A stretch of DNA of 64,000 bases from an uncultured Chloroflexia bacterium (lineage in GTDB: Bacteria > Chloroflexota > Anaerolineae > Anaerolineales > RBG-16-64-43), in contig CAWADT010000006.1 in assembly GCA_963780865.1 (NCBI GenBank), forward strand, positions 20,858 to 84,857, in the 5' to 3' direction. Both the position numbers and the translations under genes were made by a program. The notes under the pieces were generated by a model that saw only the letters and a program-made list of their open reading frames with translations, did no database searches and was not told the DNA's origin. Positions 2,520-38,395 of the stretch are shown here, piece after piece. How positions within the stretch are numbered: position 1 is the first letter of the stretch; every line of letters begins with the position of its first letter.

Positions 2520-3965
<1,446 letters not shown>

Positions 3966-4011
3966 TTATTAAGTTCTTCTTCGTGCTTTTCGTGTCCTTC
4001 GTGGATTTTCT

Positions 4012-4906
4012 TCATCCCACCCGTCCTGCTCCTTGCGCGGCGAGTGCCTCCGTGCCGGCGGCGATGTCGAGCAAATCGCCGGTGATGCTTTCCTGGCGCG
4101 CCTTGTTGTACTCCAATTGCAATCCGCCGATCAGTTCGCCCGCGTTCTCGGTGGCGTTGCGCATCGTCACCATCCGCGCCGCGTGTTCGCTGGCCAGGCT
4201 CTCGAGGATCGATTTCATAAACCTCGACCGAAACCAGATGATGGATCGCGGTGTCAAGCAGTTGGGTTTGGCCGGGCTCGAATAAATACACCGGCCTGGC
4301 GCCGCCGGGGGCTTCCTCCGCCGGCGCCGCCAGACCCGAGAGGGGCAGAAGCTGCTGCACGGCGGTTTGCTGGTGGATCAGATTGATGAATTGGGTGAAG
4401 ACGATGAAGACTTCGTCGGCTTTGCCTTCGGCATATTCTTCGATCGCCAACCGCCCGATCGGCGAAAGGTCCGCGTAGGAGGGGGCGGGCGGCAGGTTGC
4501 TGAATTCGGCGGTGATGGGCACGCCCGCGCGGCGGAGCATCTCGCGTCCTTTGCGGCCGATGACGATGTAATGGACGGTAGCCTGCGAATCCGCGAAGGT
4601 GCTCAGCGCCCGGCGCACGACGCTCGCATTGTAGGCGCCCGCCAGCCCGCGGTCGCCGCTGACTACGATCGCCAGGATGTTTCGTACCGGCGCGCGCGGC
4701 GTAAGCATCGGGTGCTTGATCGTGTTGCGCCGGCCGGCCAGATGCCCCAGCACCTCGAGCGCTTTGGTCGCGTAGGGCCTCGTGGCCAGCACCGCCGCCT
4801 GCGCGTGGCGTACTTTGCTCGCGCTCACCGTTTGCAGCGCGCGGGTCACTTGGGCGATGTTCCGGACGCTCCGGATGCGGAGCCGCATTTCGCGGAGGGA
4901 GGCCAT
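4012..4906 (-). CDS. atpG: F1 ATP synthase gamma subunit, reading frame broken once (T3/A3 run at 4213-4215)
   Basis: The N-terminal 225 aa ([25 protein letters not shown]...) lie in ORF 3914-4906. The conserved C-terminus [23 protein letters not shown]...[12 protein letters not shown] lies in ORF 4012-4257. Removing one A from GAAATCG joins ...VSVEVYE to [10 protein letters not shown]. Confidence 0.85.
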
Positions 4907-8559: not shown

Positions 8560-9390
8560 ATGGCCACAAAAATAATCTGGATGTACTGGCATCAAGGTTG
8601 GGAACAGGCGCCGGATTTGGTGAAGCAATGCGCCGAATCCTGGCGTTTGAAAAACCCCGACTTCGAGATTTATTTGCTGGATCGAAACTCGGTGACGGAT
8701 TATGTTTCCTTGCCAAAGGAAATTACCTTTCGCCGCAGGAAACTCACGATTTAAAAGAATTCCAACCTAATCCGATTGGCTTTGCTTTCCAAATATGGAG
8801 GGGTTTGGTCCGACGCTTCCGTTTTCTGCAACCGGTCCTTGGGCGGATGGCTTGGCGAATATTATGGCTCCCTTTTTTTTGCTTTTCGAAATCCCGGAAA
8901 GGATCGCCTTTTAGCGAATTGGTTTCTCGCGGCAGAATCGGAAAGCGTCATCCTGCAGCGGTTATATGCCCGGTATTCGAAATATTTTGCCGATAATTCT
9001 TTCTCGAACCAAGGCACGGCGTTGGGGAAAATGCTCGTTAACTATTTCAACCGTCGATGGAACGCGGATTATCGAACCACGGGAAAATGGCTCTCCTGGT
9101 TTGCGCGAAAGATATTGCGCGTTTACCCGTATTTTATTTTTCACTACACTTTTAATCAGCTTATTCTCACCGACCCGGAATGCGCGGCGCTTTGGAATAA
9201 GGCCAAACCGTTTCCGGCCGAACCATTGCTAAGAATAAAATATCTCGATCCATCAGAGGATGGCTTGCTTCAGGCCAAACGCGAAATAGACTCTCGACTC
9301 GCACCTATGCACAAATTAAATTGGCGGATTGATAGTACAAGCAGCTTCTGGGCTACCGTGCTTCAATATTTACACGGGCAAACCGAATAA
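8560..9390 (+). pseudogene. Caps_synth-type capsular polysaccharide glycosyltransferase, copy 1, with an in-frame TAA at 8752-8754
   Basis: ORFs 8560-8754 and 8776-9390 share one frame and align end to end with the intact paralogue 10149-10979. Motifs IWxYWHQGW and LLSKYGGxWxDASV are present. TAA replaces the paralogue's CAG (10341-10343). Confidence 0.75.
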
Positions 9391-9471: not shown

Positions 9472-9810
9472 TTATGCGTCCGCTAGAGTTCGGCTGCCTT
9501 CAGTAGAGGTGGAGGGGGAAATCGATATACAGAATTCCGGAAATTGATAATCGCCGAGGTATCCGGTTTGCACATTCCACATGGCGTCCTCTGCGAGGCG
9601 CGTGTCCGATTCGGCGGGATAGCGGTGCGTGGAGAGATCGTCGGAGGGAATCATCGGCCGGGGGGCAAGCCCGAGTTTTTGCTAGAGGGTGTTAAAAACT
9701 TCGGCAAGATTTTCCTGCCGCCCGATAAAGAAAAAATCACCTTTCCGTAGGGATAAAAACTCTTCATTTTCAAACCAGTATTAGTATGAATCAAAAACGT
9801 GCTGGATGCC
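9472..9810 (-). pseudogene. C-terminal relic of a sulfotransferase, copy 1, with in-frame stops
   Basis: Translation ...IQHVFDSY*YWFENEEFLSLRKGDFFFIGRQENLAEVFNTL*QKLGL...PSDDLSTHRYPAE...DYQFPEFC parallels 11057-11395. Stops at 9781-9783 and 9682-9684. Confidence 0.5.
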
Positions 9811-9996
9811 AGGCACGCCCACTGCCTTCACTACAGGGGCGCAGCCGCACACGGTGTTGGGATGTCCGCCCATCTTGAGCGCTTCCAGTTTCTGGATCAT
9901 CAGCGCTAGCCCGACGCGGTCGTCGAATGACTTGCAAAGATAGGTTTTGCCGCTGGAGAGCGCCACGAGCCCCGCCTGCGGGACGACCGAATCGCC
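9811..9996 (-). pseudogene. internal fragment of the M42 peptidase gene, created by the segmental duplication
   Basis: GDSVVPQAGLVALSSGKTYLCKSFDDRVGLALMIQKLEALKMGGHPNTVCGCAPVVKAVGVPG matches peptidase residues encoded at about 7664-7850. Confidence 0.6.
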
Positions 9997-10148
9997 GTTC
10001 TCCATGCCGGATAGATTTTTATCGTGGATTTGTCGGGCTTTGAATAGATTGGATATAATGGGCAGCAACGCGCTTGTTTATGTCATTGAAAAAATAGTGT
10101 GTCCGTTGGAATCGGGGAGGATATTCTGCCTTCGGCAATCAGGATGAA

Positions 10149-10979
10149 ATGATTACAAAAAAAATCTGGCTTTACTGGCATCAGGGCTGGGAAAAAGCGC
10201 CGGATTTGGTGAAGCAATGCGCCGATTCCTGGCGTTTGAAAAACCCCGATTACGAAATCCATTTGCTGGATCAAAATTCCGTGGCCGAATATATTTCCTT
10301 TCCAAAGGAAATTGATTTTCGGCGCAAGAAACTCACGGTTCAGAAGATTTCAAATTTAACCCGATTGGGCTTGCTTTCCAAATATGGTGGGGCGTGGGCC
10401 GACGCTTCCGTCTTCTGCAACCGGCCGTTAAGCGAATGGCTGGGGGAGTATTATGGCTCCCATTTTTTTGCTTTTCGAAACGCCGCGAAGGACCGGATAT
10501 TATCCAATTGGTTCCTTGCGGCGGAATCGGATAGCGTCATCCTTCAGCGATTGTCGGAGAGGATGTTCAAGTATTTTTCGGAAAATTCCTTTTCGAACCA
10601 AGGCACAAATTTTGGGAAATTGCTACTAAAATACTTCAACCTTCGATGGAACAAGGATATCCAGAGCACACGAAACTGGCAATCCTGGTTCGCGCGCAAG
10701 ATGTTGCGCGTTTACCCATATTATATTTTTCACTACATCTTTAACGAGCTCATATTCACCGATTCGGAATGCGGCGCGCTTTGGAATCAAGCTAAGCCGT
10801 TTCCCGCCAGACATACGCTGAGATTAAAACGACCGGAGGAATCAGAGGAGGAGATTCTCCGCGCCAAACGCGAAATAGATTCCCGCCTCGCGCCCATGTA
10901 TAAATTAAATTGGCGGATAGATACTACGAGCGCCTTCTGGACTACCCTGCTCGAGTATTTGCGGGAACAACCGAAATAA
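10149..10979 (+). CDS. Caps_synth-type capsular polysaccharide glycosyltransferase, copy 2 (intact)
   Basis: 276 aa uninterrupted. KIWLYWHQGWEKAPDLVKQC...LLSKYGGAWADASVFCNRPL. Confidence 0.8.
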   Translation: MITKKIWLYWHQGWEKAPDLVKQCADSWRLKNPDYEIHLLDQNSVAEYISFPKEIDFRRKKLTVQKISNLTRLGLLSKYGGAWADASVFCNRPLSEWLGEYYGSHFFAFRNAAKDRILSNWFLAAESDSVILQRLSERMFKYFSENSFSNQGTNFGKLLLKYFNLRWNKDIQSTRNWQSWFARKMLRVYPYYIFHYIFNELIFTDSECGALWNQAKPFPARHTLRLKRPEESEEEILRAKREIDSRLAPMYKLNWRIDTTSAFWTTLLEYLREQPK

Positions 10980-11056
10980 GCCGTATCTCTACCGATGGCT
11001 TGAGGTTTTCGGCCCGAACAAAACGGGATTATTTTTCCGGGAAGTGACTTCTATCC

Positions 11057-11814
11057 CTACGTGTTCGCAGCAATCCGTTCGTCGGAAACCGACGGGAAGT
11101 CGAAAACCGATGAACAGAATTCCAGAAATTGATAATCCCTTCCATACCATGCTTTCAAGTTGCGTACGGTTTCTTCCTCGAGGTGTTTGCCCAAATCGGC
11201 GGGATTGCGGTGCGCGGAGAGATCGTCGGAGGGTAGGGGCAAGCCGGCAGCAAGTCCGAGTTTTTTCTTCAAGATATCAAAATCGACACCTAGATTCTCC
11301 TGCCTCCCGATGAAGAAAATATCCCGTTTTCTTTAGGGCAGAGACGCTTCGTTTTCAAACCAGTACCAGAAAGAATCGCGAACGTGTTGGATGCCGCGCA
11401 TGGCTCGCTCCGCCACAGCTTTTTTCTACTGAGAGCCGGGCGAAAGCGCCAGGGCCAGTTCATTGGGCGAATGAAAAATACCAAACGCCTCCGCCGCGCT
11501 CTAGGGCGAGTAGATGCGCGGCCGGCTTTGGTGTTGGCGCGAGTAGAAACCGCTGTCGAAGCGGTTGAGAGGATCCCGGAGGAGAAAGAAAACCTGCTCG
11601 CCTTCGGGAACGTCGCGCAGCCGATCCGGTGTGGATGCAGAAAAATGGCGTAGCGCTGCGTGACCGGCTGATTTTGCAGCGCGAACTTCATCGCTGTGCC
11701 GCCCGTCTCTCCGACGTGGAGCGTGTGGACGAATTGCTTTCCTTGCAAACGGTTAATCCTCAGGCGCAGAACGGCTTGCTGTGACGGAGAACCTTCACGC
11801 GGCATGCATACCAT
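11057..11814 (-). pseudogene. sulfotransferase (FVHxxKTGGT-type family), copy 2; one frameshift and three in-frame stops
   Basis: FVHTLHVGETGGTAMKFAL, then after a shift near 11615-11630 FFLLRDPLNRFDSGFYSRQ. In-frame TAG at 11501-11503, TAG at 11426-11428 and TAA at 11333-11335. The C-terminus IFFIGRQENLGVDFDILKKKLGL...DYQFLEFC stays in that same frame. Confidence 0.6.
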
Positions 11815-11872: not shown

Positions 11873-14790
11873 CTATGCTTCCGCGGATGGCCGGTGCAAG
11901 TGGGAATCGATGTTCTGCACATGGATCGATTTGGGGGCCGCCTGCCAGGACCTTTCCACGAAGGCGCCGTATTGGTTGAGCAGGTGCTCGATTTTGGCCG
12001 GAAAATCCGGTTTGTCCTCTCCGTTGTCGAAGGGCGGATCGAAATGGGTCAGGAGACAGCCGTCGATCCGGCGGGTGGTATAAAGCGGCACCACGACGGC
12101 ATCGGACAGCAGGGCCAACTGCGCAAAGCCCGGTTTGATCAGGTATCGGTGCGCCGCGATATTCACCGGGAGGCCGTCGGCGGCGTCGTATCCGAAATCG
12201 GGAATGATCTGGATTATTCCACCGCGCTGAAGCTCGCGCTGAGCTTCCACCGTGGCGTTGGCGATCAGCGCGGCCTGACTTTTTCTTCGTTCCGGGGCGG
12301 ACCGTTCCTTTTGATCCATTTTCCAGGCATAACCCGCGCTGAGCGTTGGGAAAGGCGCAACATGCATGTAGTGAGACAACGCAGGAGTGGAGAAACGGTG
12401 AGACATGCCGTGATACGTAACCAGGATTAGCCCCTTCCCCTGGCGAAGCGGCGGAGTGACGTTTTCGAGTCCCTCGACGGTGAAAAAATGCTTGAATACA
12501 TCCGATGTGCCCGACGCGATAATTCGGCCTGCGTCGCGGAAAAACGGGGAGGAAGACCGCTGCAGCGCCTTTTCGAAATTTTCTTCGGACCGAAACGGAA
12601 TGCGCGCCTGAAATTTGCGCGACCAAAGAATGCTGCTCAGTAGGTTGATATTCAGCGCCTCGGCCGGGGCGGCGGGGCAACCGCCAAGGCTGTCTACCCA
12701 ATGACGGAAAAGTTTTGCTTCGGCCGGATAAAAATGATCAACCACCCATGGCCGCCGGCACCAAGCCGAGAGCCAGCGCAAGCCTTGAGGGTAGTTGAAA
12801 AACAGGGTCAGGTATTCTGCGGCGAAGCGCAGGAAATAAATTGGCAAGGTGATCGAGCCGAATCCGAACTGCGCGGGGCGATACAGGTATTGCTTCTTAT
12901 AATCCGTCGTTTTCTTCCAGCGGCGGGGTTTCCCGGGATTGACCGCCGAGGGCGGGATTACCGTGATCGGGGATTCTCCGGATGCTGCCTCCCGCCGATC
13001 TCCTGTCCGTTCCTCGCTTTCCCAAAGTTCGCCGAGCCGGGCGATCGTCGGGTCATTATAGAATGCGAACGGGACGATCCGGTGGAAGGATTCCTCGACC
13101 TGCATCACCATGGTCATGGCCAGGAGCGAATCCCCCCCCAAGAGGAAAAAGTCGTCGTTCACCCCGACCCGATCCACCCCGAGGATCTCGGCCCATAGGG
13201 AACACAGCCGGCGCTGGGCGTCGTTGCGGGGTGCTTCCAGTGGCGTGCCGATATCGGGGCGGCCCATGCCCGGTTGAGGCAGCGCCGAACGGGACACCCG
13301 GTTGTTCGACGTCCGCGGAATCGCGTCGAGGAATACATACGTCGTCGGAATCATATGCGGGGGCAGGAGGGCGATCAGTTCCTTGCGCAGCTTGCGCACG
13401 GAAAGCTCCCCGCCGCCGACGCGGACGACGTAGGCCACCAGACGCTGATTTCCCGCCGGGGAAGAGCATTGGCGCGGTGGCGGCATCCGCAACGCCGGGT
13501 ATTTTCAGCAGGGCTGCCTCCACCGCTTCCAGTTGGATGCTGAAGCCCCGCACTTTGACGAGGTTGTCTTTCCGCCCGATATGTTCCAGCAGTCCGCCCG
13601 GCAACAACCGCCCCAAATCGCCGGTCAGGTAGATCCGACGGTCTCCCCCATCCGGGTCCGGAAGGAATTTGGCTTTGGTCAACTCGGGTTTCTGCCAATA
13701 CCCGCCCGCCAGATAGCGGCTGCGGACGGCGATCTGGCCCGGCTGATCGGGCGCGGCCGGTCGGCCATTCTCGTCCAGCAGGAGCAATTCCTTGTCCGGG
13801 ACCATTCGGCCGACGGGAATTTTCTCCCAAGGGATCGGGCCATCGAGGGGAATGCGCATTTCGCTCACCATCTGAGCTTCGGTGGAGGCGTAGCGTTGGG
13901 AAAATTGGGTGCTTTTCGGAAAGAGTTTCCGGAACTGTTCCACGTCCTCGCGCCTCAGTTCCTCGCCGCCGACCAACACCTGACGCAGGCGGGGCAGGGA
14001 GAACCTGGTGGTTACGGATTGATGCCGTAAAAACGCGCAGGAGGGCATGGAGAGAATCGTTATTTCTTCCTCGCGCAGCAATCCCATCAGCGAAGGTAAT
14101 GGGTAGGTTTGGTCCGTGATCGGATAAAGCATTACGCCGCTGAGGATAGCAGCCAATGCCATGGCCAAGCCCACGCCGCTGACGGGGGAAAGCAGGACGA
14201 ACTTGTCATTTTCCGTGAGCCGGTATCGGTCGTGGTTATACCAAGAGGTATGCAAAATCAATTCGTTGGAAATAATTACCCCTTTGGGTTCGCCGGTCGA
14301 GCCGGAAGTGTAAATGAGGGAAGCCGTCGAATCCGGCCGGATGCGAACGGATTCCAAGCCGGCGGTTCGAACTCTTAGGTTCGGATAGATCCATCCAGTC
14401 ACCGGTGGTGCGGGTGAGCTCATCCGCCAGCGGACCGAACGACGGATTCGTGATCACCAAAGGTTTTCGAGCGTCCTCCCAAACGGCGGCCAGTCCATTC
14501 AGCGGAAAACCCGGATTGAATACGACGGTGCTCTTCCCAGCCTTGAGGATTCCCAATGACGCCGTGAGGAGCTCTGTCCCTTCTTCGAGCAGCAGTCCGA
14601 CCGGTTCCTCGACCGGCCCGCGTTTGGCGAGGATCGAGCGCGCCAAATCATCCGAAGCCCGGTTCAATTCGGCATAGGTCAGCGAGGAATGCGGGGTTTT
14701 CACCGCGATCCGGTTGGGAACGGCTGCGGCCACCCGCCGGAAGCGCTGGGCGAGGTTCCCGCGTAGCTCTTCTCGGGGAAAGGGGATCAT
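11873..14790 (-). CDS. adenylation domain - carrier protein - LpxL/HtrB-like acyltransferase fusion; two frame breaks
   Basis: A-domain cores LIYTSGSTGEPKGV, YLTGDLGR and GRKDNLVKVRGFSIQLEAVE. Carrier motif FFLLGGDSLLAM. C-terminal GKGLILVTYHGMSHRF ... LQRGGIIQIIPDFGYD ... GFAQLALLSDAVVVPLYTTR resembles lipid A lauroyl-acyltransferase-type domains. Three ORFs (14236-14790, 13056-14423, 11873-13492) join at about 14340-14400 and 13452-13461. Confidence 0.8.
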
Positions 14791-15818
14791 GGCGCGGCGG
14801 TGCCCAATTTTTTATTTGCGGCATCCACAAACCGCGGGTCCCAGAGGGCGTCCAAGCCGGCGACCTTGTCCAATTTGCCCTTGCCCACCGCCCACTGCTG
14901 AAAATCGATGAGCCCCGACAGGTCGGTGCTCCCATCGTTGTGAATGGCGGGCCAGCAGATTTGTTTGAGGAGATCCGACGGGAGTTTGGTGTACTTTGCA
15001 AGGATTTCAAGGTTGCGGTCGGTTTTTCCCTGATTATATTGGTGGATGGCCTGCAGATAGGCAATGAGGAAGCGGTCACCGATTTCCGGATGGTCTTTGG
15101 TGAAGAGTTTGCCGAAGTCGAGGAAGCCGACGGGCATATTCGGGACAATTTCCTGGTATCCCTTCCAGACCACCATCTTGTTCGTAGCGACCAGGCGGGT
15201 GATCCATGGTTCGGCCGTATTGATGAAATCCACCGAACCATTTTGGGCCGCCGCGATCAAAGCGGTCGGCGGAAGATATTGGGTCTTGACGTCGTTTAAG
15301 GTGAGGCCGACCGTCCCCAGGAGCTTTTCGACGACAAATGCGCTGAAGCTGTTGGGTTCGACGGCGACGCGCATTCCCCGAATTCCGTCCGCCGAAAGCG
15401 TGGGATTCTTGGCCACCCATTCCGGAGTGGCGAGGATTGCCGAGTACGTGCAGCCGGTGGGCTCCAGATACCCTTTGTCGGCGACGATTTTAATGTTCCC
15501 CGTGGTATTGATGGCGTTGAACAATCCAATCGTCGGAGAGTCGCCTGCCGCGTCCAGGGTTCCCGCCTCCAGAACAGGCGTCATCAGGGTGGCGGAGTCG
15601 AAGGTCTGAAATTCCACATCCAGGTTTTGTGCGGTGAAGTACCCTTCATCCTGGGCGATGAATAAAGGCGCGGTGGAAAGAAATGAAGTGGTGCCTACTT
15701 CCACCTTTTGCGGCGCTGCATGTGTGGCGGGTTTGCAGGACGAAAACAGCAAACCAGCGGTTGCGAGTACAAGGAAAGAGGAAAAATGCAATTGATGCGT
15801 GCTTCGGAGGGATGGCAT
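14787..15818 (-). CDS. ABC transporter substrate-binding lipoprotein, NitT/TauT (NMT1/SsuA-like) family
   Basis: 343 aa. Signal peptide with lipobox LLFSSC. Periplasmic-binding pattern of the SsuA/TauA/ThiY type. Its stop overlaps the next gene's start as ATGA. Confidence 0.8.
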   Translation of the reverse strand: MPSLRSTHQLHFSSFLVLATAGLLFSSCKPATHAAPQKVEVGTTSFLSTAPLFIAQDEGYFTAQNLDVEFQTFDSATLMTPVLEAGTLDAAGDSPTIGLFNAINTTGNIKIVADKGYLEPTGCTYSAILATPEWVAKNPTLSADGIRGMRVAVEPNSFSAFVVEKLLGTVGLTLNDVKTQYLPPTALIAAAQNGSVDFINTAEPWITRLVATNKMVVWKGYQEIVPNMPVGFLDFGKLFTKDHPEIGDRFLIAYLQAIHQYNQGKTDRNLEILAKYTKLPSDLLKQICWPAIHNDGSTDLSGLIDFQQWAVGKGKLDKVAGLDALWDPRFVDAANKKLGTAAP

Positions 15819-15864: not shown

Positions 15865-16743
15865 CTAAATCTCGGGAATGGCTTTTCCCGGCAGTTCATA
15901 ATCTTGATCGATTTGCCAGGGGATCAGACGGCGGGAAAGGAATTCCAGCAAAACATGGCTTCCGATCCCGAGCAGAGCCGCCGTCAGCAACGCGACGTAA
16001 AGGATCTCGGTCTGCAGGGTCTGCCACGACGTCCAAATCAGCGCTCCCAATCCAATCTTGGCGTTGATCAGCTCAACGGCGATGGTGAGCATCAGGGATG
16101 ATCCCACGGCCAGCCGCACTCCGGAGAGCACCGATGGCAGGCTGCCCGGAAAGACCACGCGCCGCAGGAGCAGAAACGGCGAAGTTCCGTAGGATCTGGC
16201 GATCTCGATGTAATCCGGGTTGATCTGGCGTACGCCGGCCATCGAGTTGATCAGCAGCGGAAAGAATGCCGCCAGCGCAACGAGCACGATCCGCGAAGAT
16301 TCGCCCAGACCGAAGAGGATCAGGAACAGCGGGAAGAGCGCCAGTTTGGGCAGCGCATAGAGGCCGCTAACCAACGGATCGAGGATCCGCCTGAGGCGGG
16401 GGGATAAACCCAGCGCAATTCCCAGCAGGAGCCCCGCCGCACCCCCCGCCACCAGCCCGAATCCGAACCGGTAAAGGGTTGCCGCCAGATTCACCGCCAA
16501 TTCTCCGTTCCTGATCATCCTCACCAGGGTGACGGCAATCGACGAGGGGGCGGGGAAAAACAGAGTGCTGATCCAACCGGCGCGCGCGGCCAGCTCCCAG
16601 ACCGCGAGCCCCGCCAGCACCAGCAGCAGCGAGGCCCAACGCTCCAGTGCGCCGGGCCGCCAGCCGCGGGCCGCAGCGGTTACCGCCGGTGTTAACCCGC
16701 GTTCGGTTGAACTTCGGCTTCGATCGTCTGCCATATCTTCCAC
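15865..16743 (-). CDS. ABC transporter permease, NitT/TauT family
   Basis: 292 aa, about 6 TM segments, with the EAA-like loop IARSYGTSPFLLLRRVVFPGSLP. Confidence 0.8.
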   Translation of the reverse strand: MEDMADDRSRSSTERGLTPAVTAAARGWRPGALERWASLLLVLAGLAVWELAARAGWISTLFFPAPSSIAVTLVRMIRNGELAVNLAATLYRFGFGLVAGGAAGLLLGIALGLSPRLRRILDPLVSGLYALPKLALFPLFLILFGLGESSRIVLVALAAFFPLLINSMAGVRQINPDYIEIARSYGTSPFLLLRRVVFPGSLPSVLSGVRLAVGSSLMLTIAVELINAKIGLGALIWTSWQTLQTEILYVALLTAALLGIGSHVLLEFLSRRLIPWQIDQDYELPGKAIPEI

Positions 16744-17459
16744 TTAAGTGCCGTCGCTTCCGGTTGAGTGGCTGCACGCAGCGTGCGCGGTCGGGGGAGC
16801 GGCACGCGGTACTCCTCCAGAATCCTCCCCGGACGACGGCTCATCACCAGCACTCGGTCGCCCAGAATGATCGCTTCATCGATGTCGTGGGTGACATACA
16901 CCACGGTTTGTTTTTTCGCCGCCCAGGCTTGCAACAGCTCGGCTTGCAGGAGAAGCCGCATTTGCGCGTCCAATGCGCTGAACGGCTCGTCCATCAGCAG
17001 CACCGAGGCATCGGTGAGGAACGCTCGCCCCAGCGCGGCCCGCTGCCGCATCCCCCCCGAGAGCTCGTGCGGATAGTTTGGGGAAAAAGATTCCAACCCC
17101 ATGGTTTTCAGCCATCGCTCGGCTTCCCGGCGGCGATCGGCAAGGGGAACCCCCTGGGCTTCCAAACCGAAGGCCACGTTGTCGAGGATGGTCATCCAGG
17201 GGAACAAGCCGTGATCCTGAAACACCATCGCGCAGCGCGGAGTGTGCTTCGGCAATGGCCGCTCGAAGTGGATGCTTCCCGAGTTGGGCGATTGGATCCC
17301 GGCGATGAGTTTGAGCAGGGTGGTCTTCCCGCAGCCGCTCGGTCCCACCACGCACAGGAACTCATGGGGCTCAACCCGCAACTCCAGATGGTCCAACGCG
17401 GTCACTCGGCCATTGCTTGAAAAATACGCCTTGGATATATTGGAGCAGGAGAATTCCAT
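16692..17459 (-). CDS. ABC transporter ATP-binding protein, NitT/TauT family
   Basis: Walker A GPSGCGKTT, signature LSGGMRQR, Walker B LLMDEPFSALD. Confidence 0.85.
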   Translation of the reverse strand: MEFSCSNISKAYFSSNGRVTALDHLELRVEPHEFLCVVGPSGCGKTTLLKLIAGIQSPNSGSIHFERPLPKHTPRCAMVFQDHGLFPWMTILDNVAFGLEAQGVPLADRRREAERWLKTMGLESFSPNYPHELSGGMRQRAALGRAFLTDASVLLMDEPFSALDAQMRLLLQAELLQAWAAKKQTVVYVTHDIDEAIILGDRVLVMSRRPGRILEEYRVPLPRPRTLRAATQPEATALKWKIWQTIEAEVQPNAG

Positions 17460-17632: not shown

Positions 17633-18406
17633 TTAGTGGTATCCCAGTTTTTCCATGACGGGGCCGGCGATTTCAAGAACGGCTTGCACCTCGGAGGCCG
17701 AAAGATCCTTGCCAAATTTGCCGATACTCTTGTCGTGGATTCGTTTGGCGTGAAAACCGGCTGGGTCCACCTGTAAGTAATCCGCCAGCCGCTGCAGCTC
17801 GCCGTTGGGGCGCTGGACAAGGTCCTCGTAGCGGAGAAGGAATAGGTCCTCGCGGTATTTTTCCATGGCGTCGATCGCGCGCACCCACTGCCGGGCCGCG
17901 TCCTGGACGGATTGAAACTCCTCCGCCCAGGGCAGCCCCTTCCATTTTGTGCGAACCATCTTCATGAAGGAGCTGATGACATCGCGCGCGTCGCGGTAGA
18001 TGATCACCCGGCGCAGCGCCTGCTGGCCGACGAGCGCGGGCAGGTCGAAGACATAGTGGGGGTATTTATCCCCGACGACGGGCTTATGCATTACACTCCG
18101 CAGCGCCTGCTCCACGTCGGCGAGTGTTACTTTCCCGGATGAAATCCGGCGTAAATGGGAGCGGTACATCTCCAGGAAGATTCCGCTGGCGAGCTTGAAA
18201 TACCATGGCGTCCTGCGGCCGATCCGCCAATAGAAACTGACGTGGCGCCAATCCGTTTCGATCGACCGGTAGTATTCCGTATACGGCGAATCAAGGTTCC
18301 GGAAGCATTTAAACTCGCCGGTGATGCCGATCTGCGGATGGTCGCGGCAGAGTTGAAATAGGAGCGTAGTGCCGGAGCGTGGATGACCGCCGATGATAAA
18401 GGCCAT
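17633..18406 (-). CDS. sulfotransferase (PAPS-dependent type), paralogue 1
   Basis: Start at ATG 18406 (MAFIIGGHPRSGTTLL, a 5'-PSB loop). IIYRDARDVISS (3'-PB). Shares C-terminal HxKSIGK...LGY with the neighbouring gene. Confidence 0.8.
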   Translation of the reverse strand: MAFIIGGHPRSGTTLLFQLCRDHPQIGITGEFKCFRNLDSPYTEYYRSIETDWRHVSFYWRIGRRTPWYFKLASGIFLEMYRSHLRRISSGKVTLADVEQALRSVMHKPVVGDKYPHYVFDLPALVGQQALRRVIIYRDARDVISSFMKMVRTKWKGLPWAEEFQSVQDAARQWVRAIDAMEKYREDLFLLRYEDLVQRPNGELQRLADYLQVDPAGFHAKRIHDKSIGKFGKDLSASEVQAVLEIAGPVMEKLGYH

Positions 18407-18417
18407 GCTGCTCCCGC

Positions 18418-19203
18418 CTAGGAATACCCGAGCCGGGCGAGCGTTTCCCCGGCGATCGATTCCACCGCGGCGAGCGCTTGGGGCTCGAGTCCGGCGCGGT
18501 GTTTCCCGATGCTCTTCTCGTGCAGGATGTGGATTGGAAAATCCGCCGCCTTGACGCCGAGCGCCAGGCCGAGTTCCTCCGCCACGGCCCTGGGTTCGGA
18601 CATCAGCCGTTCGTAGCGCACGGGAATGATCTTCCCCGCGCAGCTTTCCATGAGCTGGATGGATTTCACCCAGCGCATGGCCACTTTCTCCGGCGTGTCG
18701 AAGGCGTGGACGAAGTCCAGGTCTTTCCAAACCGACCGCGCGATGGCCAGCGTGGAGCTGACCACATCGCGCGCGTCGCGGTAAATGACGATGCAGGTTA
18801 GCTTATCGCATCCGGCGAAGTACTTGAGACTCCAAATATAATCGGGGAATTTATCCCCCACCCAGCGCCGATGGGGAAACAAACCGTGGAGGGCGGATTC
18901 CGCGCCGGTAAATCCGATCCGCCACGAACGTGTCCCCTGAATTCGCAGCAAATAGCTTGCGATAAACAGAAGATTCGAGCGAAGCGGGGTCGGTTCATTC
19001 CGGAAAAAGTTGACGCGGCCGCCTTTGCGCGCGATGGCGACGGTTTGGCGAAGAATGTAGGTGGAATAGTACGCCCGCGATCGGCCCAGGTATTTCAGGT
19101 TTGAAAATTCATTAGTGACGGCGATCTCCGGATGGCTGTTGAGGAGACTTCGCAGGATCGTCGTTCCGGAGCGTTGATGCCCGGTCACCAGCAGCAGCGG
19201 CAT
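18418..19203 (-). CDS. sulfotransferase (PAPS-dependent type), paralogue 2
   Basis: Start at ATG 19203 (MPLLLVTGHQRSGTTIL). VIYRDARDVVSS. Tandem paralogue of 17633-18406. Confidence 0.8.
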   Translation of the reverse strand: MPLLLVTGHQRSGTTILRSLLNSHPEIAVTNEFSNLKYLGRSRAYYSTYILRQTVAIARKGGRVNFFRNEPTPLRSNLLFIASYLLRIQGTRSWRIGFTGAESALHGLFPHRRWVGDKFPDYIWSLKYFAGCDKLTCIVIYRDARDVVSSTLAIARSVWKDLDFVHAFDTPEKVAMRWVKSIQLMESCAGKIIPVRYERLMSEPRAVAEELGLALGVKAADFPIHILHEKSIGKHRAGLEPQALAAVESIAGETLARLGYS

Positions 19204-19211: not shown

Positions 19212-21071
19212 TTAGCGTTCCTTTCGCAGGGAGTCCATCTGTTTGGATTGCATGGTGTAGAGCGCCGCATACACCCCCTTCTTCCGCATCAATTCCGGAT
19301 GGGAGCCGTCCTCGACGATTTTCCCCTGGTCCATCACGATGATCCGGTCGGCCATGCTCACCGTGGAAAACCGATGGGAGATGATGATCGTTGTCCGGTT
19401 CTTGGCCAGGTCGCGGAAAAGGCAGAAAATCTCGTACTCCGAACGCGGGTCGAGCGACGAGGTCGGCTCGTCCAGGACCACAACCGATCCGTTGCTGGCA
19501 AATGCGCGGGCGATCGCGATCTTCTGCCATTGGCCGCCCGAAAGATCCACCTCGCCGAACATCCTCCCCAGGATGGTTTCATACCCTTGCGGAAGCCGGT
19601 GGATCAGCGGGTCGATCCCGCACATCTTGCCGATGGCCTTCACCGCCTCCGGGTCGTCCATCAGGCGCTTCCAATCGCCGTAGGCGATGTTCTCGTGCAC
19701 GCTGCCCTCGTATTTGCCAAACGGCTGGAAGACGCTGGAATATTGCTGATAGAGGAACTCCTGGGAATATTCGTCGAGCGGATGGTTATCGAGGAGAATC
19801 CGGCCGTGGGTGGGCGCATACAGGCCGGAGAGCAATTTCACCAGCGTGGTTTTTCCGGCGCCGTTTTCACCCACTAGCGCCACCACCTCCCCTTTGCGGA
19901 TGTGCAGCGACACCCCCGAGAGCGCCGGCGCGGCGGTCCCCGGGTAGAAAAAGGTGACATGCTCCATCTTCAGGTCGCCATCGATGGCGGCGGGCCGGTA
20001 GGAGCCCTCGATGGTCAGGACGGGTTCGGTCCGCAGCAGCACGCGGATATGGTGGATGTAGATCGTATCCTCCAGCGCGTTTCCGGCGGTGAGCACCGTC
20101 TGCTCGATATCGCGCCGCAACCGAAGCGCGGCGCTCCCGAAAATCGTCAGGTCGCCGAGGGTCAGCGCGTGGTCGCGGATTTTTGTGACAATTCGCCACA
20201 GCAGATACGTCACCAGGCCGCTGGTGAGGAGGGAATAGATCGTCTGCATGATCAGCGCCGCACGGCGCATCCCCTGGTCCTGTCCGATGAATTCCTTCAG
20301 GAGGTCGTCGAACTTACGTAGCAAAAACGGGCCGAGGCCGAGCAGTTTGATTTCCGGCAGGAAGGATGGTGTGGTCAGACGACCGGTGAAATAGCGCGTC
20401 CAGCGCCGCTTGGTCGTCCGCAATTGTTCCAGTTCCGTTCGGCGGATGACGAGCCGCCATTCGAACCAGAAATATCCCAGCATGATGGGCAGGAAGATCG
20501 GCAGGATGATCGGGTCGATTTGGAATAAGAGGGCTGCCAGGATGGCGCTCTCCAGGATGATCGATCCCAGATTGATGATGTTGGAGAGAAAGTTGGCGAA
20601 GGTGCCCCCGGCGTTTTGCTGGGCGATGCTGAGAGTATCCTGGAATTGCAGATCTTCCAATTGCGCTAGGTCCAGTCGGGAAGTGTGTTCCAGCACGTCC
20701 ACGGTGATGTTCCGGCTGATCGTATCCTGGAAATACAGGTTCACGTAATTTTCCACCAGGGAAATCAATGCGTCCATCAGCGCCGCGCCCAGGCCGACCA
20801 GCAGCCACAAGTAGATCCGGTTGTCGTTGGCGGAGTGTCCGTTAACGGCCGCGGCGACCGCGTTGACCAGCCCGCGGGTGGAGACGGCCAGCAGGGCCGG
20901 GATGCTGCTGGAGGCGGCCGCCAGCGCGATCATCGCGATCACATGGAAGGGCTTATGGGAGAAGGAATATTTAAGCGTCCATGCACCCTCGCTAAAGAGG
21001 GTGCTGAGATTGGAACGCAAACCTTTTTGAAGCAGGTTGATTCTAAGCTGGGAGGAAGTGCGATAATTCAT
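19212..21071 (-). CDS. ABC exporter, fused permease/ATPase half-transporter (MsbA-like)
   Basis: 619 aa. Six-TM N-terminal domain, GENGAGKTT, LSGGQWQKIAIARAF, VVLDEPTSSLD. Its ATG overlaps the upstream stop as ATGA. Confidence 0.85.
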   Translation of the reverse strand: MNYRTSSQLRINLLQKGLRSNLSTLFSEGAWTLKYSFSHKPFHVIAMIALAAASSSIPALLAVSTRGLVNAVAAAVNGHSANDNRIYLWLLVGLGAALMDALISLVENYVNLYFQDTISRNITVDVLEHTSRLDLAQLEDLQFQDTLSIAQQNAGGTFANFLSNIINLGSIILESAILAALLFQIDPIILPIFLPIMLGYFWFEWRLVIRRTELEQLRTTKRRWTRYFTGRLTTPSFLPEIKLLGLGPFLLRKFDDLLKEFIGQDQGMRRAALIMQTIYSLLTSGLVTYLLWRIVTKIRDHALTLGDLTIFGSAALRLRRDIEQTVLTAGNALEDTIYIHHIRVLLRTEPVLTIEGSYRPAAIDGDLKMEHVTFFYPGTAAPALSGVSLHIRKGEVVALVGENGAGKTTLVKLLSGLYAPTHGRILLDNHPLDEYSQEFLYQQYSSVFQPFGKYEGSVHENIAYGDWKRLMDDPEAVKAIGKMCGIDPLIHRLPQGYETILGRMFGEVDLSGGQWQKIAIARAFASNGSVVVLDEPTSSLDPRSEYEIFCLFRDLAKNRTTIIISHRFSTVSMADRIIVMDQGKIVEDGSHPELMRKKGVYAALYTMQSKQMDSLRKER

Positions 21072-22525
21072 AGGATTCTTTTCTTGGCCACGGCAATTCT
21101 ATTCTGTTTTCTCGACTTTGGGGAAAGGAAATATTCTACCGCCGCCCGCACAAACCGGCTCCAGGTGGGTAACGCTCGGATCGATGCCCCGTTGCGAATG
21201 GCGCGGGACACGGCGACCGCCGCCGATCGCACATCTTTCCGGAAAACCGATTGCGCGAAAACTGTCAAATAGAGGGTCGTGACTTCCCCCCGATCGGAAT
21301 GGGGTACCACCCCGGTATTGAGGAGATCGCGCCAGATTGCATCGATGCTCGCGATGGGGGTACCACCTGATGCCCCGATCAGCGCCGATTGCAAGCTTTT
21401 GACGATCTCCCGCGTGCTCAAACCGGAGGAGAGCGCCCTCATCTTCCCCGGGTCCGGTGTGCGACCCCGTTGGTATTCCCACCATAGTAAATGCAGCCAA
21501 TCCAGAATCTTCCGGACCCGCTCCGGATACGGATTCCCCGGCAGTGGAATCCGGCAAAGGATTTCCCCCAGCGATGCGGTTTTTTCCCAGGCAACTCCGT
21601 ATTCCAGCGCCTGGTGAATCAGTTGACTTTGCCATACGAGGGGTATCTGGTCCGGAGATTGCTCGGCGAAGGGGATGGTTCCCTCTAAAAGGGCTGCCAT
21701 TCGCGCGTGGTCGCCGTTGCGCCACAAATCGAACGCCAGCCAGAGCAGGGTGTAGTAGCGCACTGACGGTTCCCATTCCCGCACGCCGGCGGAAAGGGTG
21801 GGCATCGCGAAGAAGCTGTCGACCGCAGCCATCAGATCGCCGGCTTGGCGCTGGCTGTCGCGCGTGATATTGGTGGCGTGCTGCCGGTAGCAGACGGTGG
21901 GTTCCCGAAGCCAGCGCATCCGGCACCCGGCGGCGGCCAGCCGGAACATCATCTCCACATCGTCGGTCTGGAACAGGCGCGGGTTGAACGCTCCGGCTTT
22001 CCGCAGCCAGTCCGAGCGCACGAGGAGGCCGCCCAGGAAAACGGGCTTCCACATCAGCCAGGTTTTCAAGTCGAGAATCGGGGCAATCTTCCAAGGTTGG
22101 ACAATTTGGAGCAGGTTTCCGCGCTCGTCGACCGTCTGCCAGCCGCTGTGAACGGCGCCCAGCTGCGGATGGGCGGCAAGTAGTTGCGCCTGCGCTCTTA
22201 ATTTCCCCGGTAGAAAAAAATCGTCGGAATCCAAAAACGCAATAAACCTTCCGCGGGCTTTCGCGATCCCCGCGTTGCGGGCGGCCGCAGGCCCTCGCCG
22301 ATCCTGACGCAGGTAATGAATGTTGGGAGCGGTGAAGGCCGCCATCAGCGAGGGCGTTGTATCGGTCGAGCCGTCGTCGACGACGATCAACTCCCAGTTC
22401 GGATAATCCTGCGCCCGCACGCTGTCGACGGCTTGCCGGATAAATTCGGCATGGTTGTGCGTCGGCATGATCACGCTGATGGAGGGGGGATCCGGAACCG
22501 GCGATGATTTGGAGAAGAAGGTCAT
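21068..22525 (-). CDS. family 2 glycosyltransferase with a roughly 250-aa C-terminal domain of unknown function
   Basis: ISVIMPTHNHAEFIRQAVDSVRAQDYPNWELIVVDDGSTD and FLDSDD. Start set at ATG 22525, which overlaps the upstream TGA as ATGA. Confidence 0.8.
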   Translation of the reverse strand: MTFFSKSSPVPDPPSISVIMPTHNHAEFIRQAVDSVRAQDYPNWELIVVDDGSTDTTPSLMAAFTAPNIHYLRQDRRGPAAARNAGIAKARGRFIAFLDSDDFFLPGKLRAQAQLLAAHPQLGAVHSGWQTVDERGNLLQIVQPWKIAPILDLKTWLMWKPVFLGGLLVRSDWLRKAGAFNPRLFQTDDVEMMFRLAAAGCRMRWLREPTVCYRQHATNITRDSQRQAGDLMAAVDSFFAMPTLSAGVREWEPSVRYYTLLWLAFDLWRNGDHARMAALLEGTIPFAEQSPDQIPLVWQSQLIHQALEYGVAWEKTASLGEILCRIPLPGNPYPERVRKILDWLHLLWWEYQRGRTPDPGKMRALSSGLSTREIVKSLQSALIGASGGTPIASIDAIWRDLLNTGVVPHSDRGEVTTLYLTVFAQSVFRKDVRSAAVAVSRAIRNGASIRALPTWSRFVRAAVEYFLSPKSRKQNRIAVAKKRIL

Positions 22526-23925
22526 AGGGTGCCGCGATTCGGCTCGCGCCGGTTGCGGAGATAGAATTGGGCGCCGGATCGCATGAATCGATACCAAGGG
22601 AATACTGCCCGGAAACCGGTGGAACTTTTCAGCGCCTTACCAAGGCATACGCTCGCCGAACCGATCCTGCCGGCGGAGAGGGCGCGAAGGTAACAATTTA
22701 AATACAGGGTAATGACCTCACGCCGATCCACCGGGGGGACGATTCCGATCTTCACGGCATCCTGCCATAACCGATCCACCACCGCCGGCGGCGTTGGATG
22801 CCGATCGCTGCTGATGCAATCCTGCGCCAGTTTTACCAGATCGCGCGTCGAGCCGATGTTCGGGTTCCCCGCGGTGAGCAATCCGTTCCCGGTTCCCAAT
22901 GCATAGGAAAGCCAGACAGTCCACCACCAGCGGAACAGGATCCGGACTTTTTCCTCCTCCGGTGCTGGAAGCGCAAGGATCGGAAGCGTCAGATCGAGAA
23001 AATCGTCCAAGCCGATCGGCGCAAGGCCGTTCTCTGCGGAGAGTTGGTGAAACGATTCCCGCCAATTCTTTAATTGAATGAATGCGGTTTCCTGCCGAAA
23101 TCGTTTCACTTCCTTGAGGGCTTCCCCCGCCTGGAAGGGAAAACCCCGCGACCACAGATACCACGCCAGCCAGAGATTGGTCGCATTCCGGATCGAATCT
23201 TCCTTTGGGCAAAGTTCCGCAGGCAGCTGTGGGGAGGCGAAAACTTTATCGAGAGCACGGAGGAGAAAGAACGCCTGGCGGGGGGCATTTTGCATGATGC
23301 TGACCGGATGTTGGCGGTAACCATAAGTGGTTTTCCGGAGCCAGCCTATCTTTCCACCTGCGAGAAGAATCCGGAAAACCAGATCGGTATCCATCGACGC
23401 GTCAGATTCCGGATCGAATCCGCCAACCCGATCGAGGATCTCCCGCCGGAACAATTTTGAACAGAGCATGGTCGGTTTCCAGATTAAGCAGGATTCCAGA
23501 TCAAACACCGGCGCATGTTCCCAGGGGGCGATCTCGGCGAGATTCTTTCCCTGGACATCGACAATTTGCCATCCTGAGGAAACGACATCCAATGACGGTT
23601 CGGCGGAAAAACAGCCCAGGGCATCGCGGAGGGCTTCCGGGTAGAGATAATAATCATCGGAATCTAAAAACGCAATCCAGCGTCCGCCGGCGTGGGTTAA
23701 GGCTGTGTTGCGGGCATGCGCCGCTCCCCGATGGTCCAGGAAATAAGGCCGGATCTTCTCACCGTATGATTCCAGCAGTGCCCGAGTTCCATCCGTGGAG
23801 CCGTCATCCACGACAAGAATTTCTTTGGATGCGGACGATTGCATCAAGGCGCTGTCGATCGCCTGACGCAGGGTGCCGGCGCGATTATAGGTGGCGATCA
23901 GTATGCTGATATCCACGGAACTCAT
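22522..23925 (-). CDS. family 2 glycosyltransferase, paralogue of 21068-22525 with the same C-terminal extension
   Basis: ISILIATYNRAGTLRQAIDSALMQ...EILVVDDGSTDGT and FLDSDD. The C-terminal halves are colinear (for example EVITLYLNCYL against EVTTLYLTVFA). Confidence 0.8.
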   Translation of the reverse strand: MSSVDISILIATYNRAGTLRQAIDSALMQSSASKEILVVDDGSTDGTRALLESYGEKIRPYFLDHRGAAHARNTALTHAGGRWIAFLDSDDYYLYPEALRDALGCFSAEPSLDVVSSGWQIVDVQGKNLAEIAPWEHAPVFDLESCLIWKPTMLCSKLFRREILDRVGGFDPESDASMDTDLVFRILLAGGKIGWLRKTTYGYRQHPVSIMQNAPRQAFFLLRALDKVFASPQLPAELCPKEDSIRNATNLWLAWYLWSRGFPFQAGEALKEVKRFRQETAFIQLKNWRESFHQLSAENGLAPIGLDDFLDLTLPILALPAPEEEKVRILFRWWWTVWLSYALGTGNGLLTAGNPNIGSTRDLVKLAQDCISSDRHPTPPAVVDRLWQDAVKIGIVPPVDRREVITLYLNCYLRALSAGRIGSASVCLGKALKSSTGFRAVFPWYRFMRSGAQFYLRNRREPNRGTL

Positions 23926-24833
23926 GCGGTCCTTGCCGGCGGAATGGAACGGCGCTGCCGGGCCGGCCGTTCCCAGCGAATGCCGGCGCTATGGGCAAGG
24001 ATTCCACCCCAAACCAGCAAACCTTCCCGCAGGCCCGGTCCTTTTTGGCGCATGGTTCGCAATAGAGTGAGGTGGAATTGCGGCCGGCGGCGCTGCCCGA
24101 TATTCAGCGGGATGCCGAGGCTTTGGAGATGATCCCGCATCAGTGCATACCCGCGTCCGTATTGGAATTGTTGTCGCAGGTATCGGCCGGCGGTGCGCGG
24201 ATGGGCGTGGCGCAGGCGCGCTTCCGGGACGTAATGCTGTCGATATCCGCGCGCGCATAAACGATGGCTCAGATCCAGATCCTCCGCGCCGGGGCGGGGG
24301 AAGCAATCCGCGAATCCACCCAGTTCAAGAAACACGTCGCGGCGATAGATGGCATTGTTGCTCATTAACAGATACGGATCCCCGTTGGGCAAATGCTGAT
24401 ACCCCCGGTAAAACTCCAGAAAATATTGATAGGCGCGCGCCGAAAAATTTTCCGGGAATAGGTTGAGAGTTTGCCCGCCGCACGCGTGCCAAGGCGATTG
24501 CCAGATCCCGGTGGCCATCTCGCGCAGCCAGCCGGGTTCGAGAACGCAATCATCGTCCAGGAAGGCCACCAGATCCGCTTCGGCATGACGTGCGCCGAGA
24601 TTGCGCGCGGCGGCTGGACCCTGCGCGGGGGTGGAGAGCAAAGTGGCGGAGTTGGAATCGAAGAAACGCCCGGTGATGATCGCCGAGGGATCCTGGCCGC
24701 CATCGTTAATCACAATCAGCCGCCAATTCTCGCGCGGGTAGTCCTGCCGGGCGAGACTTTCCACGCACTGGGTTAGGTATTCCAAACGATCTTTGGTCGG
24801 GAGTACAACGCTAATCCGGGGAAGATTTATCAC
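23922..24833 (-). CDS. family 2 glycosyltransferase
   Basis: ISVVLPTKDRLEYLTQCVESLARQDYP...LIVINDGGQD and FLDDDC. Stop and next start overlap as ATGA. Confidence 0.8.
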   Translation of the reverse strand: MINLPRISVVLPTKDRLEYLTQCVESLARQDYPRENWRLIVINDGGQDPSAIITGRFFDSNSATLLSTPAQGPAAARNLGARHAEADLVAFLDDDCVLEPGWLREMATGIWQSPWHACGGQTLNLFPENFSARAYQYFLEFYRGYQHLPNGDPYLLMSNNAIYRRDVFLELGGFADCFPRPGAEDLDLSHRLCARGYRQHYVPEARLRHAHPRTAGRYLRQQFQYGRGYALMRDHLQSLGIPLNIGQRRRPQFHLTLLRTMRQKGPGLREGLLVWGGILAHSAGIRWERPARQRRSIPPARTA

Positions 24834-37312: not shown

Positions 37313-38312
37313 ATGGCCACGTATGTTCCACCAACGCAACGCCGCGAAAAGAGCCCGCATCTTCCCTTCGGCGAAATGCGCCAGACGCCGTTTTACGGAA
37401 AAGACATTCTTTCCGTCTCGCAGTTCGACCGCGAAAAACTGGAATACGTCTTCGGCGTCGCCGAGGAGATGCGTTCGATGGTCGAGCACGTCGGCACCTT
37501 CGACCTGCTCAAGGGGAAAATTCTCGCCAACCTGTTCTATGAACCGTCTACCCGCACCTCGTCGTCCTTCATGGCGGCGATGCAGCGGTTGGGCGGAAGC
37601 GTGATCCCCATCAACGAAGTGCGATACTCCTCGGTGGCCAAGGGAGAATCCCTGCCCGATACGGTGCGCACGCTGGAATCGTACGCCGACGTGATCGTCA
37701 TCCGCCATCCGGAAGTGGGTTCCGCGGCGATCGCGGCGATGTACGCGCGCAAGCCCGTGATCAACGCCGGCGACGGCGTGGGCGAGCATCCCACCCAGGC
37801 GCTGCTGGACCTCTTCACCATCCGGGAGGAACTCGGCCGGACGGATGAGTTGACCGTGACGATGCTCGGCGACCTCAAATACGGCCGCACGGTGCATTCG
37901 CTCTCGCGGCTCCTGGCGCAGTTCCAGACGAAACTGCATTGCGTCTCGCCGGATATCCTGCGCATGCCGCCCGAGTTCGTGGCCGAATTGAAAATCCAGG
38001 GGATGTCCATCCAGGAGCACACGAACCTGGACGAGGTTCTGCCGGAAACCGACGTGCTCTACGTCACCCGCGTGCAGAAGGAGCGGTTCGAGGACCAGGC
38101 GGTGTATGAATCGGTCAAGGGCGCGTTTGTCGTCACGCCCGAAATCCTCAAGCTTGCCAAGGACCAAATGATCGTGATGCATCCGCTCCCGCGCGTGGGG
38201 GAGATCGCGATGGACTGTGGACGCCGATCCGCGCGCGGCCTACTTCCGCCAGATGGAATACGGGCTGTACATCCGCATGGCGCTCCTGGCGATGGTGCTG
38301 GGGAAAGCGTAG
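37313..38312 (+). CDS. pyrB: aspartate carbamoyltransferase catalytic subunit; one frame break near 38216
   Basis: [30 protein letters not shown]. After dropping one T in ATGGACTGTGGAC the C-terminus reads [32 protein letters not shown], with TAG at 38310-38312. Confidence 0.9.
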
Positions 38313-38313
38313 G

Positions 38314-38367: not shown

Positions 38368-38395
38368 TTCGTTCGAAAAGAAAGGGAACACTCCG

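Follow-up and report, generated by a model that had tools for sequence, protein, structure and literature searches.

A nonribosomal peptide synthetase-type adenylation domain fused to a carrier and an LpxL/PatA-like acyltransferase domain in an uncultured Chloroflexia bacterium

In Vibrio cholerae, the ligase AlmE charges the carrier AlmF with glycine and AlmG transfers the glycine to lipid A (PMC4278540; a further source is a 2017 study, as cited in PMC12012098). A comparable strategy operates in the D-alanylation of teichoic acid by DltA, DltC, DltB and DltD, where an adenylation (A) domain and a carrier supply a membrane-bound acyltransferase, which modifies a polymer of the envelope. We analyzed a 64,000-nucleotide stretch of DNA (hereafter "the window"; contig CAWADT010000006.1, assembly GCA_963780865.1) from an uncultured Chloroflexia bacterium, for which an earlier note, made from the sequence alone, had proposed a gene joining an A domain of the nonribosomal peptide synthetase (NRPS) type, a carrier (thiolation, T) domain and an acyltransferase resembling LpxL/HtrB. 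Our analyses show that this fusion recurs as an enzyme family, so far uncharacterised, whose gene neighbourhood is conserved.

By analogy, AlmE/AlmF/AlmG provides the closest known logic, a precedent in separate proteins: a DltA/NRPS-like ligase, a phosphopantetheinyl carrier and an LpxL-related transferase, functions that the window would present in the same order within one open reading frame (ORF). The two differ in that AlmEFG consists of three proteins, whereas the window encodes a single chain of ~971 amino acids (aa); in that the AlmEFG substrate is glycine, whereas the window A domain lacks the Asp that binds an α-amino group; and in that the window gene lies among genes for glycosyltransferases (GTs), sulfotransferases, an importer and an exporter rather than lipid A genes. 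The Dlt system differs further, as it uses an amino acid and separate proteins and as its transferase DltB is a membrane-bound O-acyltransferase (MBOAT), not an LPLAT/LpxL-type enzyme. A fused arrangement is known from Aas (2-acyl-glycerophosphoethanolamine acyltransferase/acyl-acyl carrier protein (ACP) synthetase), in which an ANL domain is joined to an LPLAT-superfamily transferase that uses an ACP-bound donor. Aas and the window protein thus both hold an ANL adenylating domain and an LPLAT-superfamily acyltransferase in one protein, but in Aas the domain order is opposite, the transferase is of the PlsC type, no carrier is fused and the ligase is of the fatty acyl type. LpxL, LpxM and LpxXL (PF03279) as well as PatA share their fold with the one predicted for the C-terminal domain of the window protein, with the catalytic His and the PDQD-type Asp aligned and conserved; LpxXL, moreover, draws on a dedicated ACP, AcpXL. 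Compared to LpxL, LpxM and PatA, the window protein has an Arg for the acid of the H-x4-D/E motif, and, unlike LpxL and LpxM, it has no N-terminal membrane anchor and carries its own loading module. Literature searches aimed at the fused A-T-LpxL architecture found no description of it.

In the window, the gene is distributed over three overlapping minus-strand ORFs (14790-14236, 14423-13056 and 13492-11873), each shifted by +1 relative to the preceding one, and the homologous reading crosses all three. The meaningful part of the first ORF ends with the residues ...DWMDLSEPKSSNRRL, the second ORF carries the reading on from ESVRIRPDSTASLIYTSGSTGEPKG... up to ...IPGVADAATAPMLFPGG, and the third resumes with NQRLVAYVV... 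and runs to the stop. Deletion of one base per break yields a coding sequence of 2916 nt (971 codons) with no internal stops. Since the relative on contig L001 is in frame across both break sites and the more distant homologue P0006, found in two independent assemblies, is encoded by one uninterrupted ORF of 977 aa, we take the three ORFs, on sequence evidence, to be one gene for a three-domain enzyme of ~971 aa. Fragments carry the JGI annotation "lauroyl/myristoyl acyltransferase/acyl carrier protein". As the earlier note had stated, the start of the gene and the stop of the binding-protein gene upstream (14787-15818) share the sequence ATGA, which the coordinates bear out; the identical 4-nt overlap is present in L001 and L007. 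Every string quoted in that note is likewise present, i.e., YTSGSTGEPKG (A3), YLTGDLG and GRKDNLVKVRGFSI (A7/A8), GGDSL (carrier, Ser554) and, in the C-terminal part, GSITLPIYFLRFAAEYLTLFF, GKGLILVTYHGMSH, IIPDFGYD and GFAQLALLSDAVVVPLYTTRR.

A Pfam scan of the frame-corrected 971-aa protein assigned AMP-binding (aa 17-365, E = 2e-53), AMP-binding_C (aa 423-495, E = 5.9e-8) and PP-binding (PF00550; aa 526-587, E = 4e-13, 49.9 bits against a cut-off of 20.8), and found no condensation or thioesterase domain, in agreement with the initial reading of an A domain and a carrier that neither of these follows. The scan also matched Lip_A_acyltrans (PF03279) at aa 749-921, which reached 26.4 bits with the C-terminal 382 aa as the only query (gathering cut-off 22.3). 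These last 382 aa were also modelled with AlphaFold from an alignment of 52 sequences (mean predicted local distance difference test score, pLDDT, 85.8; predicted template modelling (TM) score, pTM, 0.83), residues 56-382 of the model being confident. In Foldseek searches of the PDB with this model, the eleven highest-ranking matches were to PatA of Mycobacterium smegmatis (E ~3e-9; TM score to target 0.62-0.66), followed by LpxM of Acinetobacter baumannii (5e-8) and then by PlsC (9e-4) and GPAT1; the 14 best PDB matches were all PatA or LpxM. The model therefore supports an LpxL/PatA-type acyltransferase fold for the C-terminal ~330 residues, as the proposed LpxL/HtrB-like C-terminus implied and contrary to the possibility that this region has no LPLAT/LpxL-like fold.

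Profile comparisons pointed in the same direction. While a profile of three sequences gave no match among PDB sequences, one of 24 sequences reached the PatA sequence (E = 1e-7), placing the family segment GRGVIL.SYH over PatA GRGAVLALPHSGNWD and the family His on the His of PatA PHSGNWD. In hhalign, the 24-sequence profile matched a canonical LpxL (L005) with 96.3% probability, pairing His793 with the His of HFGNWE (H-x4-E) and Asp864 with the Asp of PDQD; this comparator, the sole match from a scan of GTDB genomes, is the LpxL of an Omnitrophota single amplified genome, adjoins lptC/A/B-like genes and carries the motifs HFGNWE and MPDQD. The strings that the earlier note had listed as acyltransferase landmarks thus align with the H-x4-E histidine, the PDQD motif and the G-x-A..L...A.I.P block of LpxL. 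Conservation was assessed in 75 aligned full-length proteins, namely 73 from the database plus those of the window and L001 after frame correction. None of the 75 lacks His793, and the position of Asp864 is mostly Asp, with Glu in a few; at +5 from this His, residues vary across the family, with Arg in most members. Score, fold and the catalytic His and Asp place the protein in the PF03279 superfamily. It does not qualify as an orthologue of LpxL or LpxM, as the NCBIfam LpxL/LpxM/LpxP equivalogs gave only 11-24 bits (cut-offs 298-540; best 23.8 against 540), and as the membrane anchor and the lpx context are missing. A hydrophobic segment, which had been noted earlier, is present, but it does not form a clear transmembrane helix: a transmembrane helix at GSITLPIYFLRF... 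was ruled out by a hydropathy maximum of 1.34 (Kyte-Doolittle, 19 residues) and by confident helical packing in the model, where the segment is a well-packed amphipathic helix of the fold, following a disordered polybasic linker. From the model, we read the protein as peripherally membrane-associated rather than membrane-spanning. Basic linkers are present in the relatives too.

The A domain retains motifs A3, A5 (YASTE), A7 and A8 intact. Among solved structures, it comes closest to the A domains of NRPSs, with ~230 bits for each domain of LgrA; DltA models reach 182-190 bits, and TIGR01733, the model for amino-acid-activating A domains, reaches 265.3 bits, under its cut-off of 317.4. The Asp that binds the α-amino group (Asp235) is not kept, as SPVSGVGLAMAL stands where FD.S is expected; it is likewise missing in most family members, a few (P0110, P0116 and P0119) having kept it, P0110 in a different gene context. 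Since this Asp is missing, the sequence makes an aminoacyl substrate, such as glycine, unlikely for the window A domain. The specificity positions, which we place by what we take to be the PheA numbering, presumably are S278, L299, G301, R322, M330 and V331. Of the 75 aligned members, 24 have Arg322 in this numbering, every close relative among them, and the presence of this residue in the pocket suggests an anionic substrate. At A10, the catalytic Lys (PheA K517) is replaced by Arg497 (PRTSNNRVSRSAL compared to P.T..GK.DR), so that, of the A-domain cores named previously, A3 and A7/A8 stand and the "A10-like" core does not, having Arg in NNRVS at the position of the catalytic Lys. The codon of Arg497 is CGG, and a single-base error is therefore not the cause; Arg is found at A10 in the window, L001 and P0014, which come from different assemblies, and Lys in all other aligned members listed. 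The carrier Ser (Ser554) is kept in 73 of the 75 aligned proteins.

The fusion had been described as rare. This is correct in absolute terms, but the fusion is not a one-off. Word-indexed searches with the C-terminal domain and with the three-sequence profile gave three clusters, and the extreme rarity that these would indicate was overturned by an exhaustive HMMER search of 1.84 billion representative proteins, which gave 798, 351 and 87 matches at E ≤ 1e-3, 1e-10 and 1e-30, respectively. Among the best 148 matches, 74 are proteins of at least 900 aa with the match at the C-terminus. In 52 members scanned with Pfam, Lip_A_acyltrans was found in 46 (best E 2.8e-12), PP-binding in 45 and AMP-binding in 44. 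A search of plasmids with tblastn gave no match. Variants include a fatty acyl-AMP ligase (FAAL)-type ligase in front (e.g., P0040), a condensation-A-T-LpxL-like module (P0067) and two LpxL-like domains (P0074 and P0136). Tandem pairs of A-T-LpxL-like genes occur on contigs L006 (208-6171) and L010 (7140-13030), the latter combining one NRPS-type copy, broken into three pieces, with a FAAL-type copy; tandem copies suggest that more than one acyl group may be added per product.

Each of the two breaks in the window gene consists of one inserted base (+1) at a GA(A)ATC site. The earlier note had flagged frame breaks at 14340-14400 and 13452-13461; we located the first inside the former interval and the second just beside the latter. 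The closest comparison is the L001 relative, which has an equal span of 2918 nt and whose protein is ~72% identical in aa along its full length and 80% identical within the C-terminal domain. Similar insertions were found elsewhere in the window. In atpG (ORF 3914-4906, minus strand), an extra A at ~4215-4219 gives GAAATC where the 94%-identical L003 has GAATC, leaving the last ~67 codons out of frame, which is most likely an assembly error. In pyrB (ORF 37313-38662, plus strand), an extra base lies at ~38210-38225 near GGACTGTGG, where there is no GANTC site, and the aspartate carbamoyltransferase tail HPLPR...YF.Q...RMALL resumes in the +1 frame near 38215. L001 and L010, both long-read-style contigs, show similar breaks at other positions; those of L001 (~9788 and ~11560) fall at GATTC sites, and one break lies within its GGDS motif, where TTG stands in place of the Ser codon (GGDLLLAM). 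We take this as a sign of systematic GANTC miscalls in the L001 assembly and not of a dead carrier domain. From these sites we infer systematic long-read errors near GANTC sites. The GAAATC:GAATC ratio showed no useful difference among the window, L001 and L003, so that the link between the methylation motif and the errors rests on individual sites only. In the 64-kb window, GAATC and GATTC together number 186 and GACTC and GAGTC 46.

As similar insertions affect atpG and pyrB, we regard it as quite probable that the breaks in the fusion gene are insertion artefacts of the assembly, and the organism probably makes the full-length enzyme. Several observations weigh against this interpretation and against an active enzyme. 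Of four frameshifts detected across the window, this one 2.9-kb gene holds two, and real gene decay does occur in the locus, as the gene directly downstream has three stops and a frameshift and duplication remnants lie nearby. The stops in this downstream sulfotransferase-like gene arose by substitution (TGG to TAG, GAG to TAG and GGC to TAA), and the sequence identifies it as a genuine pseudogene in the window organism. Remnants of local duplication are located at 8776-9390 and 9808-10008, 2-3 kb away, i.e., a 5'-truncated copy of a Caps_synth glycosyltransferase (70% identity to the intact gene at 10149-10979) and a fragment (aa 150-216) of the M42 peptidase gene (66% identity). The replacement of the A10 Lys by Arg497 could cripple adenylation, the acyltransferase scores are weak (Pfam ~26 bits, with the LpxL equivalogs far under their cut-offs), and the acid of H-x4-D/E is not kept, as the +5 position holds Arg (H-G-M-S-H-R). 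Together with the hypervariability of the locus relative to its flanks, the frameshifts, the decayed neighbour, the remnants and the A10 change favor the explanation that both insertions are real and that the gene is a recent pseudogene here, with the family functional elsewhere. We nevertheless consider this unlikely, although it deserves serious weight: the 971 codons contain no substitution-type stops; the insertions lie at GA(A)ATC, and a change from GAATC to GAAATC also breaks the essential atpG while a +1 insertion breaks pyrB; L001 and L010 show similar breaks elsewhere in sequence; P0014, which is intact, likewise has Arg at A10; and dN/dS against L001 is 0.21 overall and 0.30, 0.18, 0.20 and 0.21 in four segments, values that mostly reflect older divergence. 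That the three ORFs instead encode separate functional proteins, i.e., a split A domain and a carrier-acyltransferase, is scarcely credible. The ORFs do overlap, an internal ATG, GTG or TTG is a formally possible start in each, and gene callers have recorded the third as a 537-aa protein, but the breaks interrupt the A domain itself within its core, one ahead of A3 and the other between A8 and A10, the tails read out of frame show no homology, relatives carry a single ORF of ~970 aa, and homology crosses both joins with an offset of 1 nt. More generally, single-base insertions split real genes in the window, and ORF-level annotation there is unreliable.

Table 1. Coordinates of the fusion gene, its domains and frame breaks, and neighbouring genes in the window
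Feature	Position	Strand	Remarks
Whole A-T-LpxL-like gene	11873..14790	-	971 codons + stop once two single-base insertions are removed
Adenylation core (AMP-binding, aa 17-365)	13695..14742	-	Pfam; break 1 inside
A-domain C-terminal subdomain (AMP-binding_C, aa 423-495)	13304..13523	-	Pfam
A10 position, Arg497 for Lys	13298-13300	-	Directly after AMP-binding_C match
Carrier (thiolation) domain, aa 526-587	13028..13213	-	Ser554 of GGDS at 13127-13129
Linker, aa 588-644, low confidence, polybasic stretch KPRRWKKTTDYKKQ	12857..13027	-	pLDDT <50, model residues 1-54
LpxL/PatA-like acyltransferase, aa 645-971	11876..12856	-	His793 at 12410-12412, Asp864 at 12197-12199
Frame break 1, extra base, CTTGGAATCC (TTGGAATC), GG for single G, GAATC site	14354..14355	-	L001 and P0006 read through
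Frame break 2, extra A, GGGAAATCAG (GGGAAATC)	13449..13451	-	L001 has GGCAATCAA (G-G-N-Q; GGC AAT CAA)
Sulfotransferase-like gene, directly downstream, decayed	11050..11814	-	One frameshift and three in-frame stops compared to L001
SsuA/NMT1-family binding protein, lipoprotein-like N-terminus	14787..15818	-	TIGR01728 67.5 bits, below cut-off
SsuC/TauC-like permease	15865-16743	-	Same ABC importer
Importer ATPase	16692-17459	-	Same ABC importer
Two Sulfotransfer_3 sulfotransferases	17633-18406, 18418-19203	-	Homologues in L001, L003, L006, L007, L009
MsbA-like ABC exporter, 619 aa, transmembrane + ATPase	19212..21071	-	TIGR02203 273 bits, cut-off 602
Three GT2 glycosyltransferases	21068-22597, 22522-23925, 23922-24833	-	Part of the recurring neighbourhood
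One GT4 glycosyltransferase	24839-25996	-	Part of the recurring neighbourhood

The importer, sulfotransferase, exporter and glycosyltransferase genes that accompany the fusion gene (Table 1) recur, in whole or in part, on contigs L001, L003, L006, L007, L008, L009 and L010; these contigs are short, so that the neighbourhood is seen in whole or in part, and identity to L009 is 27%. The L007 homologue of the MsbA-like exporter has an ABC_membrane match. No lpx, kdt or lpt genes were found in the conserved neighbourhood. For the importer subunits, NCBIfam gave SaoA/SaoP as the best names; these were rejected as belonging to an unrelated system and uninformative on the substrate. Contig L003 encodes a 952-aa double GT2 protein corresponding to two window ORFs that overlap by ATGA at 22522-22597; this split is not clearly an error, and the ATGA-coupled pair may represent a real split or a further error. 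When positions 3200-26400 of the window were compared to L003, the flanking proteins RuvA, M42 peptidase, AtpA, AtpG and AtpD showed 87-98% identity, while the cluster genes (glycan, sulfotransferase and transport) showed 39-68% identity and were partly reordered. Judged from this comparison, the locus is hypervariable, with the pattern of a variable surface-glycan locus. Rfam and tRNA scans detected no Rfam families or tRNAs in the 64-kb window.

The domain identities, the fold, the conserved catalytic residues, the recurrent architecture and the conserved gene neighbourhood lead us to propose a chemistry, a donor acid, an acceptor and a role for the importer. We consider it moderately probable that the protein is a self-contained acylating enzyme that activates an acid, loads it on its own carrier and transfers it to a membrane glycolipid acceptor, the frame breaks being most likely artefacts. 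The NRPS-type A domain would adenylate a carboxylic acid other than an α-amino acid, given the missing Asp235 and the hint of an anionic substrate from Arg322, and the phosphopantetheine arm on Ser554 of the fused carrier would receive the acid as a thioester. From there, the LpxL/PatA-like domain, with His793 and Asp864, would pass the acyl group directly to a membrane-associated acceptor, on a hydroxyl or an amine, and neither condensation nor a thioesterase would take part. The donor is acyl-ACP for LpxL and LpxM and acyl-CoA for PatA; a phosphopantetheine thioester is thus the normal donor of this fold. The transfer of a carrier-bound acyl or aminoacyl group had been suggested before; the acyl group is a natural choice, while the missing α-amino-binding Asp argues against the aminoacyl group. 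On the basis of the conserved neighbourhood, the acceptor would most likely be a glycolipid or lipid-linked oligosaccharide made by the adjacent GT2/GT4 enzymes; the neighbouring sulfotransferases would add sulfate to it, and the MsbA-like ABC transporter encoded beside them would then export it. The SsuABC-like importer, which appears translationally coupled to the fusion gene in the window, L001 and L007, may supply the acid.

A more specific version, which we hold as tentative and rather doubtful, is an undescribed pathway of uncultivated bacteria in which an anionic, possibly sulfonate-bearing carboxylic acid is taken up by the SsuABC-like importer, activated by the A domain with its Arg322 and missing Asp235, and esterified onto a sulfated glycolipid that is flipped outward by the MsbA-like exporter; the LpxL-like domain would then represent a new off-loading domain for carrier-protein assembly lines. 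LpxL-like domains are also found behind FAAL-type ligases and behind a full condensation-A-T module (P0067). Alternatively, the enzyme might strictly modify lipid A itself, adding an unusual secondary acyl group or a small acyl group. LpxXL with AcpXL provides a precedent for this, as does AlmEFG (PMC4278540), the fold and motifs are those of late acyltransferases, and an MsbA-like exporter is encoded nearby. We regard a role in lipid A modification as improbable, however, because the LpxL/LpxM/LpxP equivalog scores lie so far below their cut-offs, because PatA, which acylates mannosides, is a better match than LpxM, because the neighbourhood lacks lpx, kdt and lpt genes and holds GT2/GT4 enzymes and two or three sulfotransferases instead, and because the difference in identity between the locus and its flanks is typical of variable surface glycan loci.

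If the proposed mechanism of acyl transfer to a glycolipid is true, a carrier-bound acyl group leaves an NRPS-like module by LpxL-type transfer onto a membrane glycolipid, which would represent a release route beyond condensation, thioesterase or reductase domains, and the strategy of envelope decoration used by AlmEFG and Dlt would fit in a single protein. The conserved gene partners suggest a class of surface glycolipids or glycans, both acylated and sulfated and as yet uncharacterised, that would occur in bacteria known so far mostly from metagenomes. As the locus varies among strains in the manner of O-antigen loci, it would probably matter for interactions with phages, hosts or predators.

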